Shown here piece by piece: positions 16,994 through 22,957 of a stretch of 64,000 bases of DNA. The notes below the pieces were generated by a model. The model did not search any database, was not told where the DNA came from, and was given only the letters and a program-made list of their open reading frames with translations. The DNA is from Candidatus Berkelbacteria bacterium (GTDB lineage Bacteria; Patescibacteriota; UBA1384; JACPKC01), in contig JACPKC010000010.1 in NCBI GenBank assembly GCA_016187225.1, positions 156,590-220,589 on the forward strand, in the 5' to 3' direction. The translations under genes and the position numbers were made by a program. Position 1 is the first letter of the stretch. Every line of letters starts with the position of its first letter.

Positions 16994-17599
16994 TTAATAG
17001 ATAGGTGAAAATTGTCTAATCACACCGAGCACTCTCCCTTGAATTGAAACGTCATTGGTGTAGATCGGCGGATATTTAGGGTTAGCTGGTTGTAATCGAA
17101 TTCGCCCCTTCTCTTTATAATAGCGTTTGAGTGTCACATTCTCTTCTTCCAGAAGAGCCACCACAATATCCCCATTTTTTGGTTGTTTTGTGCGTTGAAT
17201 TACCACATAGTCTCCGTCTAAAATTCCATCGTGCACCATGGAGTCGCCGCTAACTTTAAGTGCGTATACATCATGACCCATCATTGAGCGTGGAATATCG
17301 ATCGTCTCGTTGGTTCGAATCGCCGCAATCGGATTACCCGCCGCGATCACGCCCAGAAGAGGAATCTCGTGAGTACGCTCATCCCAAGCGGGTGTTACTT
17401 GCACGGCACGCGCGCCTTCATCTTTACAAATATGGCCCTTGAGTCTTAGTGATTCGATATGCTCCGCGACTGTCGCTACCGATTTCAATTCAAAATGTTG
17501 GGCAATTTCTCGGTAGCTCGGCGCATACTCATGATCATTGATATACGTTCGTAAGTACTCAAGAACGGCTTTTTGTTTGGGTGTAGGAAGCTGGTGCAT
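16994..17599 (-). CDS. lexA: SOS repressor LexA (S24 peptidase)
   Basis: N-terminal wHTH, an AAG cleavage site (VIAAGNP), and SGDSM / TLKRYY Ser-Lys dyad motifs. Confidence 0.9.
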   Translation of the reverse strand: MHQLPTPKQKAVLEYLRTYINDHEYAPSYREIAQHFELKSVATVAEHIESLRLKGHICKDEGARAVQVTPAWDERTHEIPLLGVIAAGNPIAAIRTNETIDIPRSMMGHDVYALKVSGDSMVHDGILDGDYVVIQRTKQPKNGDIVVALLEEENVTLKRYYKEKGRIRLQPANPKYPPIYTNDVSIQGRVLGVIRQFSPIY

Positions 17600-17615
17600 A
17601 GTGTTACTTTATACC

Positions 17616-17644
17616 GAACAAAAACCGTAAACAATAGAATTTAT
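17616..17644 (-). promoter_or_regulatory. Putative lexA promoter (-10 TATAAA) with a candidate LexA operator
   Basis: Minus strand reads TTGTTTACGGTTTTTGTTCGGTATAAAGTAACACTATG. The block CGGTTTTTGTTCGG abuts the -10 and is almost identical to the block at the dinB promoter. Confidence 0.45.
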
Positions 17645-18912
17645 CCACATAAGAGTCTTCTGCTTCTTCCGTCTAAAAGGTTGTGCATTTTTACTCCAAC
17701 GCTCCAGCCGCTTTGCACACTTGTTTCGCCAAAGCGGGCTCGAATTTTATTGATTGCCATTGTCAGGTTTGATGAATTAGCGTCGAACGGTAATCGAACA
17801 GGCGCTTGAATTTTTGGAGTCAGAACGGAAACAGTGACACTTGGCATGCGTACTAAAGTCTCCAGAGTTAATTTGTCGCCTCGCTGGCAGGCCGAGGAGA
17901 TGAGCTTCCAGGCATAGCATTCGATATCTCTGTCTGATTCAATTCGGTATGAAGTCTGAAGAGTTGAGCCCCAGCTGGGCGCATTTGTGCGGCGTAAATA
18001 AATTTGAATTGATTGACCGACAAATCCCCTCTTTCTTAGTCGATTCCCCACTTTCTCGCTCAAACGAAATAAGATTGGTCGTAATTCGCGTACCGGTACG
18101 TCGTGCGGCAAAGTGTATTGATGACCGATCGATTGTTCAGCTTTTTGCCGCCAATATGGAACAACACGAGCAAGGTCGATGCCCTGCCCAATCAAATGCA
18201 GTTCTTTTTCGTATGGGAAAACTAATGTCCGCAAGGTATCAAGTGATTGTTGGGTAAGATCGGCCAATGTCTGAATACCGGCGGCGCGCAGTCTTCGGCC
18301 AAGCCGTGGCCCGATACCACACAATTCCTCAACCTGTGTTTGGGTAAAAAGTTCTACTTGTGTCCAGGCCGTTACCCCCTCCCGGCGCAATTTTGCAACT
18401 GTTTTCTCCTCGGCGTTATTTAAAAGTGCGACAAGTCCATCGGGTTTTTGCGATTCGCTTGCCAATTTAGCAAGACGTTTATTACGCGCGATCCCAATCG
18501 AAGCGGTCAGCACCGGCCCGAGTTGATTGTGAAATTTAGTTTTAATCGTGCGAGCGATATTGATAGCTTGTTCCAAGCTAGTATCGATCTCAATGAAGCC
18601 CTCATCGATCGAGAAGGGCTCGACCGCCGGTGAGAATTGCTCAAGAATTTGAAATATATGCTGACTAATTGCCTGATATCGTTCGTAGACGGGTGGCACA
18701 ATGATGAGTTGCGGACAGTGTTTGAACGCTTCCCGACCGTTCATGCCTACCCGAACACCCAGCCGTTTTGCTTCTCTCGAGGGCGCCACAATCACTGATC
18801 GTGTGCCTGGTTTGCCACCCACGCCAATTGCTTTGCCACGAAGCGCCGGATTATATTGTTGCTCGACTGAAGCAAAGAAGCTGTTCATGTCGATGTGTAA
18901 AATCCAGTTCAT
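17641..18912 (-). CDS. dinB: DNA polymerase IV (Y-family, DinB)
   Basis: MNWILHIDMNSFFASVEQ start with a GGAG RBS at spacing 7. The ORF track extends to 18972, but there is no RBS there. Confidence 0.9.
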   Translation of the reverse strand: MNWILHIDMNSFFASVEQQYNPALRGKAIGVGGKPGTRSVIVAPSREAKRLGVRVGMNGREAFKHCPQLIIVPPVYERYQAISQHIFQILEQFSPAVEPFSIDEGFIEIDTSLEQAINIARTIKTKFHNQLGPVLTASIGIARNKRLAKLASESQKPDGLVALLNNAEEKTVAKLRREGVTAWTQVELFTQTQVEELCGIGPRLGRRLRAAGIQTLADLTQQSLDTLRTLVFPYEKELHLIGQGIDLARVVPYWRQKAEQSIGHQYTLPHDVPVRELRPILFRLSEKVGNRLRKRGFVGQSIQIYLRRTNAPSWGSTLQTSYRIESDRDIECYAWKLISSACQRGDKLTLETLVRMPSVTVSVLTPKIQAPVRLPFDANSSNLTMAINKIRARFGETSVQSGWSVGVKMHNLLDGRSRRLLCG

Positions 18913-18991
18913 TTTGATCTCCATTTCGAGTTCCACCATCTGCCAACTTGCGAGGGCGAAGTTGAGAACCATTCACAAACCAGCCTTGTTT

Positions 18992-19020
18992 AATTATACA
19001 CGAACAAAAGCCGAACAAAT
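18992..19020 (-). promoter_or_regulatory. Putative dinB promoter (-10 TATAAT) overlapping a GTTC-N7-GTTC candidate LexA operator
   Basis: Minus strand reads TTTGTTCGGCTTTTGTTCGTGTATAAT. The plus strand reads GAAC(19002-05)-N7-GAAC(19013-16). Confidence 0.5.
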
Positions 19021-19021
19021 T

Positions 19022-19942
19022 GTGGAACTAATTTTGGTCGGCGTTGCCGTGGGGATGTTCTTCTTTGGGATGGGGATGACCAGGCGAGAGTCTGGGGCTT
19101 CGATCAAAAATAAGACTCCGATCAAAAAAGATCTACAGGGTGCCAAGATTGGTGTTGCCTGCATTGAGCCGAATGGCTCGGTTCACGACCTCGAGGCCGA
19201 GGTGATCAATGCCGTCCTGGGGAATGGCGGACACTGTGTGGCCACCAATCGAAAACGAGTGCATGAGCTCATGAAGGGGCTCGACGTTACCGACGGTGGT
19301 GGCCGAATAGTTAATGCCGATCTACTGATCGCCGGCATTGTTACCGAGCAGACCGAGGAGCTCCAACTTGGGGGAGCGGCGACTTATACCCAGGAATTTA
19401 TTGCTTGGGTATTCCACCACTATCCGCGGGCGCTGGACAGGTATCAGTACTTCAAATCTGATTACGAAATTGGTGGTGACAGCAGGTGGAAACCATACCC
19501 GGAAATGGATCTCAAAAAGATCCAGGCACAGTACCAGAAACAGATGCAGGTACAAACCACTGTCTGGAGTGCTCGCAAGCAGTCCCGTCGAACCGTCACC
19601 GTCGATTTTCGTTGCTTTAGCGCCTATGGCGAGGTAATGGGCGCCGGAGTTCTGACGGAGACTGTCAAGAATGCTGACAGCCCAGCGAGCCTGCTGACGC
19701 TCGCCCAGCAGATCGTCGCCCGGTTGCACGTCCACCGGTCGGAAGCGGAGCTCGAGCTCTGGTACGGCGACGCCCGAGCTGCCGCCATTCATCGGCCGAT
19801 CGTGCCACTCGCACCACCCCAGCTCCCGACGAGCTCCAGCCACGTTGAAGAGCAGGCTCCTCCTGCTCCATGGCGTGAAGAACAACCGGAGGGATCACTG
19901 CTCTGCGACTATCGCACCAAGCGGATAGGGGTGGACGACTAG
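19022..19942 (+). CDS. Hypothetical protein A of the GC-rich island, possible N-terminal TM helix; start uncertain (GTG 19022 or ATG 19055)
   Basis: Long ORF in the only open frame. Hydrophobic N-terminus ILVGVAVGMFFFGMGM. Ends 15 nt before a strong terminator. No recognised domain. Confidence 0.45.
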   Translation: MELILVGVAVGMFFFGMGMTRRESGASIKNKTPIKKDLQGAKIGVACIEPNGSVHDLEAEVINAVLGNGGHCVATNRKRVHELMKGLDVTDGGGRIVNADLLIAGIVTEQTEELQLGGAATYTQEFIAWVFHHYPRALDRYQYFKSDYEIGGDSRWKPYPEMDLKKIQAQYQKQMQVQTTVWSARKQSRRTVTVDFRCFSAYGEVMGAGVLTETVKNADSPASLLTLAQQIVARLHVHRSEAELELWYGDARAAAIHRPIVPLAPPQLPTSSSHVEEQAPPAPWREEQPEGSLLCDYRTKRIGVDD

Positions 19943-19956
19943 AAGACGGGTTTGAA

Positions 19957-19983
19957 ATGCGGCCCACCCGGGCCGCATTTTTT
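19957..19983 (+). terminator. Strong rho-independent terminator after island gene A
   Basis: ATGCGGCCC-ACCC-GGGCCGCAT 9-bp GC stem followed by TTTTT. Confidence 0.8.
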
Positions 19984-20139
19984 ATTGCTGAATATTTTTG
20001 AGACCATTGAAAAAAGTGTTCATGTTCTAACTTGTCGAGAACTATTCATTACGAGTTTCTCCACCAAAAGGTCCAGGTATAGTCCTTAGTTCTTTTACAG
20101 ATGTTTCCCAGGGACATTAAACGAAGGAGGGTGATGACG

Positions 20140-20442
20140 ATGTCGACCCCATCGATCACGCCTATGAATACAACCCCGAATGAATTTGCCGATGAACGAG
20201 TGAGACCGCATGCGGACTTCGTTTACGACTCAAACACTTTGCCAACTCTCAATAAGCAGGAGAAGAATCTCCGCAAAGTCCTGGGAATGAAGAAAAGTGC
20301 CCAGATAGTCCGGATTCCGTGGCAAGTTGAGATACCTGCCGAGGCCGATGGCCTCATGCTGGTTTCCTCGCTTTCCGATCTCGGCAAAGTGTTTGGTCTT
20401 AATGACCCGCTCGGTGAGAATTACGGCCCACTCTGTATTTAG
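20140..20442 (+). CDS. Hypothetical protein B of the island (about 100 aa)
   Basis: AGGAGG RBS 9 nt upstream of the ATG at 20140; elevated GC; no recognised domain. Confidence 0.45.
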   Translation: MSTPSITPMNTTPNEFADERVRPHADFVYDSNTLPTLNKQEKNLRKVLGMKKSAQIVRIPWQVEIPAEADGLMLVSSLSDLGKVFGLNDPLGENYGPLCI

Positions 20443-20445
20443 ATT

Positions 20446-20916
20446 GTGGAGCGAGTCGGGAAGTCCCGGCAACCCTTTGCCAACTACTGCTACTGCGAGG
20501 ATGTATTTTTCAGAGAGCGCATTCGTCTTCACACCGACGTCCGTAGCCGCTGGGAAACACTTGAGGAAAAACACTCAGTGGAACAACTCCGGCTGTTTGA
20601 GCTCCCGGTCTCAACCGGCAGATTATACCAAGGCTACTCACCCCGAAACGCTCGGCAGGACGCCTTCATAAAAGGTCAGTTGTCACTTGATCCGGCCACA
20701 GGCGTCTGTGTTCTTGCGGCTTGGCCGAACCGACTGACTCGTTATCCGGAAACCTTTATGGATTTTCCAGGTGCGGAATACGCGCCGTGCGCTGACGGCG
20801 ACTTCGTCCATGTCCTGTCTTTCAGCTGGGAAGCTGGCGATTCTTGGCTTCGCTCCGTCCGGGCCGAGTTTGTCTTCGGATGCTATGGGTCCGCCGTGGT
20901 GTTCCTCCCGGAGTGA
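20446..20916 (+). CDS. Hypothetical protein C of the island (156 aa), translationally coupled to B
   Basis: The GTG start lies 3 nt after the stop of B; elevated GC; no recognised domain. Confidence 0.45.
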   Translation: MERVGKSRQPFANYCYCEDVFFRERIRLHTDVRSRWETLEEKHSVEQLRLFELPVSTGRLYQGYSPRNARQDAFIKGQLSLDPATGVCVLAAWPNRLTRYPETFMDFPGAEYAPCADGDFVHVLSFSWEAGDSWLRSVRAEFVFGCYGSAVVFLPE

Positions 20917-20973
20917 TATCCCTGGGGACTTGAGGCCTTGGTGTCTTTTGTTCCCCTGGAACACGTTCAGGAG

Positions 20974-21014
20974 ATTGGGAGTGGATTGGATGTTACCCGT
21001 CCCGTCCACTCCTT
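20974..21014 (+). terminator. Rho-independent terminator after island genes B-C
   Basis: GGAGTGGA...TCCACTCC stem followed by TTTTTTATT. Confidence 0.7.
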
Positions 21015-21016
21015 TT

Positions 21017-21496
21017 TTATTGCCGTAAGTGGGCGAGAGCAATGCCGTAGGCCACGGTTACATTGAGCGATTCTTTTATGCCGAGCATGGGAATTTGGAT
21101 AGTCTGATTAGCTAATTTAAGCGCTCCTTCAGAGACGCCGTAAAGTTCATGACCAACAACAAGCGCGATAGGCGCGTTGCTTGGTGGCGAATACGTAGTA
21201 ATAGATAGCGCTGTCGGGGCTTGTTCAAGAGCGAGGATAAACAAACCATCTCGTTTTAGTTCTCTTATCACCTCGATTGCCTGTGGCGCATACGACCACG
21301 GCACAGTTTGTTCGGCGCCAAGCGAGGTCTTTGTGATTTGAGCTCTCTGCTTTGCTTCGGCCGGCGTTCCAGTGAGGCCGCATAAATACAGATGCTCGAT
21401 CGCAAACGCATCACTGGTTCGAAAAATACTCCCAACGTTGTAGAGACTCCGAATATTGTCGAGCACCGCAATAATTCGAGATTGGCGCTTAATCAT
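21017..21496 (-). CDS. SpoU/TrmH-family RNA 2-prime-O-methyltransferase
   Basis: SPOUT fold motifs IIAVLDNIRSLYNVGSIFRTSDAF ... ALVVGHELYGVS ... NVTVAYGIAL. Confidence 0.8.
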   Translation of the reverse strand: MIKRQSRIIAVLDNIRSLYNVGSIFRTSDAFAIEHLYLCGLTGTPAEAKQRAQITKTSLGAEQTVPWSYAPQAIEVIRELKRDGLFILALEQAPTALSITTYSPPSNAPIALVVGHELYGVSEGALKLANQTIQIPMLGIKESLNVTVAYGIALAHLRQ

Positions 21497-22957
21497 TTAT
21501 ATCAATTTGCGTTCATCTGGTGTGACATCAATACTGTCTGGGTGTCTATTCTTTTTGATAAGCGGAGTTCTTTTATTCCGTTCACACAACCGGTCGGCAA
21601 GTTCTGGCGAGACATACCAAATAATCTTCTGCTTGTCGTAATTGTAGTATTTTTTCTTTTCTTCGTTTGGATGGGTCACTTCTTGGTCCGCCCAAGCGGC
21701 AAGAACGTTGTAAGCGCGTCCAGATTCCTCTGCCAGATCAATTAATGCAATCCAATCAGTTGGCGCCACCTCTTTGTAAAGAATCTCTGCCCGAAGTCGA
21801 GGATTCTCGCGCATTGCATCAATATCAAGAATTGCCTTGGGTGAGCAATAGTAGCCGATTCGGAAACCTTGTCGAACTTGTCGTGAGATAAATTTTCCAG
21901 CCCCAGGATGATTAACCCGTTGGATTTTTCGGAAATACTGCTGTGCCGTTGAGGTTGATATGTTTCGGTCACTAGCATACTCATATGCATTGATCCAACC
22001 TGTTGGCGGTGACCCAAGTTTGCGCATGCTTTCAATCTGTTTTTCGATTATTTTAACTAGTTCAGGCGCAATAAAATCCGCCTGGCTCCGCCCTCGGCCA
22101 CCCAATGGTCTTTGGATGCGAAAGCGTTTAAGCCAATCTGGATTTTCAACGAGGTTCTTTGCTATCCAGTGCCGGATCGTGCCCGGATCAAGATTATAGT
22201 GAGTCGCCAATTCACTTAACTGACGCCAACCTGCTGGCGATTCATCTGAAATTTTTTGGCGAGGTGACTGAAGGCTTGGCATCTCTGTGCGTTCGAGTGT
22301 CTCCACGACGGTTTTTTTCCACGTTTCAGGATCACTCGTATAGGAGATGCGACTCGTTGGGAACAGTGTGCCTAAATCATCCTTTGTTGTTTCCAAAATT
22401 GAATTAATAGCTTCTTCCCGCACTCCATAAACCACAAATGTTGCATTTCCTTCTTCATTGCAAATTAGAATAAGTTGGTTTTTGTCGGGCAGAAAAAAGG
22501 CGACATACGGCTGTTTGCGTATTTGAGTCGATTCAACTCTGCCGATTTTAACATCATAGTTAAGATTAAGATTGCTTAGAACTTCAATGAGATAAAGTGT
22601 TCTTGGAATAATTTGCTTCCCCCCATTATTGTTTCCGCTCTCTCCTGATTGAATAGCGCCCATCTCGCTAGGCGGTAGAATCACCTCATCAATTTGATCC
22701 CAGTGTTCAGGTAGCTTGAATTCGTTGTCGGTTTTAAGCGTGTGTTCTATAAAACCTTGAACGTCAAAACTGATAATCTCCCCGGCCTGTCGATTTTTGG
22801 ATAGTGTTCGTCGAATAAAAGATTGCGCATTTAGAATCTCGGCCAGAGTTTGCACATCTGTATATTTGGTAAGAAGCTCATGAATTTTGCGTTGAAGTTC
22901 GGCTTTTTGTAATTCAGGGCGTGCTTCGTGATTTGACCCTTGTGCTTCCTCCAGCAT
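21497..22957 (-). CDS. Hypothetical 486-aa protein, start/stop-coupled between hisS and the SpoU methyltransferase
   Basis: Long ORF with no recognised domain. It lies 3 nt downstream of hisS, and its stop abuts the methyltransferase start. Confidence 0.6.
   Translation of the reverse strand: MLEEAQGSNHEARPELQKAELQRKIHELLTKYTDVQTLAEILNAQSFIRRTLSKNRQAGEIISFDVQGFIEHTLKTDNEFKLPEHWDQIDEVILPPSEMGAIQSGESGNNNGGKQIIPRTLYLIEVLSNLNLNYDVKIGRVESTQIRKQPYVAFFLPDKNQLILICNEEGNATFVVYGVREEAINSILETTKDDLGTLFPTSRISYTSDPETWKKTVVETLERTEMPSLQSPRQKISDESPAGWRQLSELATHYNLDPGTIRHWIAKNLVENPDWLKRFRIQRPLGGRGRSQADFIAPELVKIIEKQIESMRKLGSPPTGWINAYEYASDRNISTSTAQQYFRKIQRVNHPGAGKFISRQVRQGFRIGYYCSPKAILDIDAMRENPRLRAEILYKEVAPTDWIALIDLAEESGRAYNVLAAWADQEVTHPNEEKKKYYNYDKQKIIWYVSPELADRLCERNKRTPLIKKNRHPDSIDVTPDERKLI

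Follow-up and report, generated by a model that had tools for sequence, protein, structure and literature searches.

Positions 19022 to 21016 of a 64,000-nucleotide (nt) stretch of Candidatus Berkelbacteria DNA (contig JACPKC010000010.1; the whole stretch is called the window below) carry three plus-strand open reading frames (ORFs), A, B and C, and occupy the gap between the promoter/operator of dinB and the stop codon of spoU. Our reading, held with somewhat better than even confidence, is that this segment is a short, probably foreign islet with two independent transcription units, gene A on the one hand and B+C on the other, and is not one system. An earlier note on this DNA had placed the segment in that same gap, which the coordinates bear out, and had interpreted it as a single three-gene cassette and the window's best candidate for an undescribed system. 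The evidence does not support that interpretation: A is alone, with a terminator of its own and homologs in unrelated contexts, B and C are one broken frame, and the segment as a whole is unremarkable as an islet, with a single gene of interest. If this is correct, the region holds no undescribed system for defence or mutagenesis and comes off the list of candidate new systems.

Composition of the segment

The segment has a G+C content (GC) of 54.1% against 46.5% for the window, and is the GC maximum of the window at scales of 500, 900 and 1900 nt, by about 3.4 standard deviations at 1.9 kb. The earlier note was thus right that this is the GC-richest part of the window. The level of 57-60% that it gave for about 19140-20920 is too high, however, and is not sustained: A has 56.9% GC, B 50.5% and C 56.7%, an AT-rich spacer of 42% GC between A and B splits the segment, and 62-63% is attained only in 19550-20000. 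The GC of third codon positions (GC3) is 64.2% in A, 57.4% in B and 61.1% in C (z-scores 4.3, 3.0 and 3.7, respectively). All three values lie above every one of 54 host ORFs, which have a mean of 42.7 ± 4.9% and a maximum of 54.7%, and the atypical composition is confirmed in this way. The ORF listing contains the three plus-strand ORFs and also the long antisense ORFs that had been reported.

Gene A and its family

Gene A (HYW32_03670; 19022..19942, plus strand) encodes 306 amino acids (aa) from a GTG at 19022. The annotation uses an alternative TTG at 18962, preceded by GAGGG, which gives 326 aa. Homologs of A start at the equivalent of GTG 19022, with M-E followed by a helix. When 5.8 billion protein clusters were searched with a word index, only two homologs were returned, of 41-44% identity; scanning all of 1.84 billion representatives with HMMER brought the family to 17 members. 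All members with a named source are from Patescibacteria. Every member has an N-terminal hydrophobic helix and a conserved domain of about 200 residues, and a central insert is absent in some. With 17 family representatives, a conserved core and a coding score inside the host range, A is a real gene, and its family is an undescribed and very rare one.

The sequence of A has no match in Pfam, NCBIfam, PHROGs or PADLOC, none of the 17 family members matches Pfam or NCBIfam at E ≤ 1, and searches of PDB sequences with A profiles gave only noise. The claim that no domain is recognizable in these ORFs therefore holds for sequence; it does not hold for the predicted structure of A, which is described below.

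The homologs of A lie in different surroundings: in a pnp...RNase J region, beside nusA, after a lytic transglycosylase gene, and after a ribosomal protein cluster. B or C never accompanies A at the homolog loci examined. With different neighbours in each context examined, A stands alone and belongs to no conserved operon. In the window it is closed by an intrinsic terminator (19954..19987, plus strand), with a hairpin at 19954-19981 that has a GC-rich stem of 12 bp and is followed by a U-run (-23.1 kcal/mol, z -3.85). The B-C transcript ends at a second intrinsic terminator (20977..21018, plus strand), in which a hairpin at 20977-21013 is followed by U6 (-25.4 kcal/mol, z -4.69) and the U-run overlaps the stop codon of spoU. 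Strong terminators had been predicted after A and after B-C, and the folding energies and z-scores agree.

Two further features were noticed at homolog loci. In L003 and L005-L007 (loci fetched for comparison carry L numbers), the A homolog is directly followed by an uncalled, conserved small ORF of 71 aa, hydrophobic and containing EIDWWTIELGPSHGYHQIHLP (L005 10403-10618; L003 971-1099); it is absent from the window. In addition, about 100 nt of near-identical DNA lies upstream of the A homologs in L003 (60-160) and L005 (9690-9791), whose proteins have diverged. This shared DNA holds a promoter, TCGACA-17-TGTATAAA, and a 75-nt leader with TGTTCGG(C)TTAACAACTGAATAA, and may be a conserved leader RNA or an operator.

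Predicted structure and topology of A

An AlphaFold2 (AF2) model of A based on the 17 sequences has a predicted local distance difference test (pLDDT) value of 79.4, with more than 90 in the core. An AF2 model made from three sequences (pLDDT 44.5) was unusable and was discarded. The larger alignment yields a CsgG/LptE-like alpha/beta domain, into which a helical module is inserted, and a disordered tail rich in proline. Foldseek matched this model to CsgG (E 6.5e-6), and a viral fold library gave a weak match to phage CsgG only. On the model, the globular domain of A shares the alpha/beta core of the CsgG/LptE/PelC/TraT/LpoB group of envelope lipoproteins. A differs from this group in several respects: its sequence matches the profile of none of these families, and it has neither a lipobox nor a signal peptide. 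Instead, it is predicted to keep an uncleaved 17-residue N-terminal membrane helix (residues 3-19; 19028..19078, plus strand), after which comes a K/R-rich linker.

All 17 family members lack K and R ahead of the helix and have a K/R-rich segment behind it. Applied to this charge distribution, the positive-inside rule predicts that the domain faces the cytoplasm (N-out, C-in), opposite to its periplasmic look-alikes. Patescibacteria are not known to possess an outer membrane. A would accordingly be a single-pass, membrane-tethered protein, and the predicted structure points to a non-enzymatic, probably oligomeric, membrane-attached scaffold. It counts against this role that the fold similarity behind it comes from a predicted model and goes with a sequence identity of 5-18%. 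The family, with a CsgG/LptE-type fold on an N-terminal membrane helix, bears on the reuse of such folds.

ORFs B and C

ORF B (HYW32_03675; 20140..20442, plus strand) encodes 100 aa from an ATG at 20140, with a strong Shine-Dalgarno sequence, AAGGAGG, at 20124-20130. Its coding score, 0.16 under host and donor-like models alike, is similar to that of A. Among the 5.8 billion clusters B matches only itself and is, as judged by these searches, an ORFan. It ends in an in-frame TAG (20440..20442, plus strand) that parts it from ORF C (20446..20916, plus strand), which comprises 156 codons from a GTG at 20446, has no Shine-Dalgarno sequence and carries no annotation. C had been described as start-coupled to B. 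The 3-nt gap is there, but B and C are both in frame 1, and the TAG-ATT split between them had been missed. Taken together, B and C would make up an orphan frame of 258 codons severed by the in-frame TAG. TAG ends 10 of 53 long host ORFs and is thus an ordinary stop codon in this host.

We consider that B is probably still translated, and that C is probably a decaying downstream remnant or untranslated 3′ sequence of the B-C transcript. Under the host model, C has a coding score of 0.015, lower than that of any host gene. Under a model trained on a 54%-GC Patescibacteria contig the score is -0.06, and C ranks below 12 of the 13 genes of the donor-like contig L005. In its second half, the coding signal is indistinguishable from that of the antisense frame. 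C has no match among the 5.8 billion protein clusters and was not called by the gene finders behind public collections; B, C and the fused B-C are likewise without a match in any fetched locus, phage or plasmid.

Other observations weigh against reading C as a remnant. It scores best of the six frames and may be translated, its GC at the three codon positions (62/47/61) follows a coding-like pattern, and a stop-free run as long as C (157 codons) arises in only 45 of 2000 shuffles (2.3%). With the shared frame, the 3-nt gap and the lack of a terminator between the two ORFs, these points would suit a functional pair of B and C, linked by termination-reinitiation at TAG-ATT-GTG, or TAG readthrough to a 258-residue product. 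Given the poor codon scores, the antisense-like second half, the missing Shine-Dalgarno sequence and homologs, and the use of TAG as a normal stop, we regard such a pair or product as unlikely. The C region was also considered as a structured RNA and rejected, since its fold z-score of -2.4 is owed mostly to the terminator.

The idea of a cassette in which the three ORFs work jointly, in a toxin-antitoxin, anti-phage or mutagenesis role, draws on the small size and adjacency of B and C, which are 3 nt apart on one transcript, and on the foreign composition of the segment next to SOS (DNA-damage response) genes. It finds no counterpart in the databases: at E ≤ 1 none of the three ORFs matches a PADLOC family, Pfam, NCBIfam and PHROGs are blank for all three, and tblastn against phages and plasmids gave no match to any of them. 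A DNA-binding domain of the antitoxin type was not found in B or C with Pfam, NCBIfam, PADLOC or PHROGs. In view also of the single frame split by a stop, the weak coding signal of C, which was never called as a gene, the separate terminator of A and its failure to co-occur with B or C elsewhere, a joint cassette seems to us scarcely credible.

Acquired or native DNA

The case for acquisition begins with composition. The GC3 of A, B and C exceeds that of all 54 host ORFs, and A homologs elsewhere match the GC of their own hosts: the nearest ones are in contigs of about 54% GC, with homolog and host at 55.3 vs 53.6% in L003 and 53.7 vs 54.8% in L005. A is 41-44% identical to P0002 and P0003, the latter from a contig of about 54% GC. 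The distant relative L009 permits a comparison by gene order. It keeps the nusA-clpB-relA-hisS...IMS block, the shared proteins of this row being 43-61% identical to those of the window (NusA 61%, RelA 54%, HisS 48%), and the interval from hisS to IMS is free of A, B and C. The A homolog of L009 (P0015), only 25% identical to A, lies elsewhere on the contig (L009 1-11656), at the nusA end of the block, whereas A in the window is at the dinB end. As donor we presume another member of the Patescibacteria with about 54-57% GC, and not a phage or plasmid.

Horizontal acquisition had been asserted in the earlier note. The atypical composition fits it; the usual marks of mobility do not accompany it. 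No integrase or mobility gene, nearby tRNA gene or flanking repeat above chance level was found at the islet, the nearest tRNA gene being 30 kb away. The segment resembles horizontally acquired ORFan islets in its atypical GC and GC3, its orphan ORFs, a frame that is probably decaying and its position in an intergenic gap, with convergent or divergent units on either side, and departs from them in having no integrase, tRNA target or direct repeats. These absences weigh against a horizontal origin, as does the location of the L009 homolog, less than 10 kb from the conserved gene block, which hints at an old linkage more than at a recent import. A further difficulty is that no close relative was found with the 486-aa protein of the gene beyond spoU or with DinB (genome contigs), or with a three-sequence A alignment (metagenome contigs).

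The same observations, namely the absence of mobility signatures, the A homolog beside the same nusA-clpB-relA-hisS block in L009, and host-model coding scores of A and B within the host range, could be taken to mean that A, B and C are native and vertically inherited, their high GC being a local or gene-specific bias. In that case, the GC3 values above those of all host ORFs, the agreement of A homologs with their own host GC, and an identity to A of 25% in the syntenic L009 homolog, against 43-61% for housekeeping proteins, would be hard to accommodate, and we consider vertical inheritance quite unlikely.

A 15-nt inverted repeat with 14 of 15 positions matching (GCCGAACAAATTGTG / CACAGTTTGTTCGGC; 19010-19024 / 21302-21316) lies on both sides of the islet, with arms in the operator and in spoU. 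It was considered as an insertion scar and judged to be a chance occurrence, the second arm being inside spoU. By our own estimate, about 0.2 such pairs are expected by chance.

The LexA operator of dinB-lexA

On the minus strand, divergent from A, lies an operon of dinB (17641-18912; Pfam IMS/IMS_C) and lexA (16994-17599; Pfam LexA_DNA_bind/Peptidase_S24). Immediately upstream of the dinB -10 element is the LexA operator TTGTTCGGCTTTTGTTCG (19001..19018, minus strand), a direct repeat GTTC-N7-GTTC. The extended -10 of the dinB-lexA promoter, TGTATAAT (18993..19000, minus strand), aligns with TATAAT in all of the 13 metagenome loci described below and in L009. Read along the minus strand, the order is TTCCACA-ATT-TGTTCGGCTTTTGTTCG-TG-TATAAT, a 74-nt leader and the ATG of dinB. 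The TTCCACA (19021..19027, minus strand) is a near match to a DnaA-box-like 9-mer and overlaps the start codon of A. A second, degenerate LexA box, GTTTACGGTTTTTGTTCG (17615..17632, minus strand), is found directly upstream of lexA and is followed by a -10 element, TAAAGT.

Within the window, GAAC-N7-GAAC is about as frequent as expected by chance and there is no GAAC-N4-GTTC, and the window alone could not validate the operator. It was validated by comparison with other loci. L009 has an identical TTGTTCGGTTTGTGTTCG with TATAAT upstream of a DUF6504-IMS operon. A scan of Joint Genome Institute (JGI) metagenomes with TGTTCGGNTTNTGTTCG-N2-4-TATAAT (21 fixed bases) retrieved 13 contigs of 30-65% GC. 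In 8 of the 13 the site is directly upstream of a lexA homolog (37-48% identity), with dinB after lexA in three of these, and in 3 more it precedes a RhuM/Fic gene. GTTC-N7-GTTC is the direct-repeat LexA motif of Alphaproteobacteria (PMC8565304), and the window box, TGTTCG-N5-TGTTCG, is GTTC-N7-GTTC as well. A study of Patescibacteria is among the sources cited for LexA proteins that evolved direct-repeat recognition (PMC7739468). As far as comparison can show, the SOS operator at 19001-19018, which had been put forward as putative, is confirmed as genuine by the lexA-upstream loci, by L009 and by the window's own lexA.

Possible control of A by LexA

The LexA box ends 3 nt before the GTG of A, and the dinB upstream element overlaps the first codons of A; the segment thus adjoins the operator region, as had been proposed. 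With this geometry, any A transcript must start in the operator or cross it. If A were transcribed from a weak candidate promoter, TTCACA-17-TATACA (18972-19000), transcription would begin within the box. Judged by this arrangement, control of A by LexA is likely: A would be repressed by LexA and released after DNA damage, by way of a promoter captured at insertion. If so, an accessory gene landed on a LexA operator, and a minimal SOS network illustrates how a regulon gains a member by promoter capture.

There are points that weigh against such control. Upstream of GTG 19022 there is neither a convincing sigma-70 promoter nor a convincing Shine-Dalgarno sequence. With the TTG start at 18962, the box would be 40-57 nt inside the coding region of A, where it could act as a roadblock. 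The A homologs of L004, L008, L009, L023 and L024 have no LexA box, and those of L003 and L005 have a half-site only. None of the 13 metagenome operator loci contains a homolog of A, B or C, and the divergent neighbours at these loci are orphans unrelated to one another. Linkage to the operator is therefore not a trait of the A family. Nor does the DNA upstream of A significantly resemble the leader that is conserved between the L003 and L005 homologs.

Position beside lexA brings to mind YneA, ChiZ/Rv2719c, DivS and SosA, single-pass membrane proteins of Gram-positive bacteria whose genes diverge from lexA and are derepressed on LexA cleavage. Like their genes, A is back to back with a lexA operon across a shared operator, with the LexA box 3 nt from its start codon and one predicted membrane helix in its product, and the L003 and L005 homologs have a TGTTCGG half-site just downstream of the -10. 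By this analogy, A could be an SOS-induced membrane effector, a division or envelope checkpoint that halts division or remodels the envelope after LexA release, and a new, structurally unrelated counterpart of YneA, ChiZ, SosA and SidA. Known SOS division inhibitors share no homology across phyla, and a lack of homology of A to them is therefore expected. However, at 306 aa, A is two to three times larger than these proteins, its large domain is predicted to be cytoplasmic, which is the opposite topology, and LysM or other wall-binding modules are absent from it. Its linkage to lexA is not conserved: homologs elsewhere are not near lexA and have no box, and the 13 operator loci have mutually unrelated divergent neighbours and no A homolog. 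We consider a role as effector distinctly improbable on this balance; if it were true, it would be the first function assigned to the A family, in an ultra-small Patescibacteria bacterium.

Neighbouring genes and further observations

The window proteins A and B are 100% identical to the Candidatus Berkelbacteria hypothetical proteins HYW32_03670 and HYW32_03675, and the region is 100% identical in two further independent assemblies of the same population. On the far side of the segment, spoU (21017-21496, minus strand) is the last gene of a nusA-clpB-relA-hisS-486aa-spoU row. Pfam supports the earlier naming of lexA, dinB and spoU as neighbours. The 486-aa gene between hisS and spoU (21497-22957, minus strand) has a weak MerR-like helix-turn-helix match as its sole family signal, and no relatives were found among GTDB species representatives. 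An Rfam scan of 18800-21200 gave no match.

Three observations concern the SOS promoters. First, 8 of 14 aligned promoters have the DnaA-box-like 9-mer (TTATCCACA / TGTGGATAA) in one or the other orientation, 5-20 nt upstream of their LexA box; it was seen in the window at 19021-19027 and about 17642-17650 (both minus strand), and in L009, L015, L016, L018, L020 and L021. Its occurrence in either orientation makes it unlikely to be a -35 element, and it may be the site of a second regulator on Patescibacteria SOS promoters. Second, the -10 element TAAAGT of lexA ends 6 nt ahead of the ATG (window 17597-17632, minus strand), which suggests a leaderless, autoregulated lexA transcript beside the read-through from dinB. 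Third, the RhuM/Fic-domain gene behind the LexA box-promoter module encodes 332-337 aa (L012 4922-5972, L014 and L022), and may be a member of the Patescibacteria SOS regulon.

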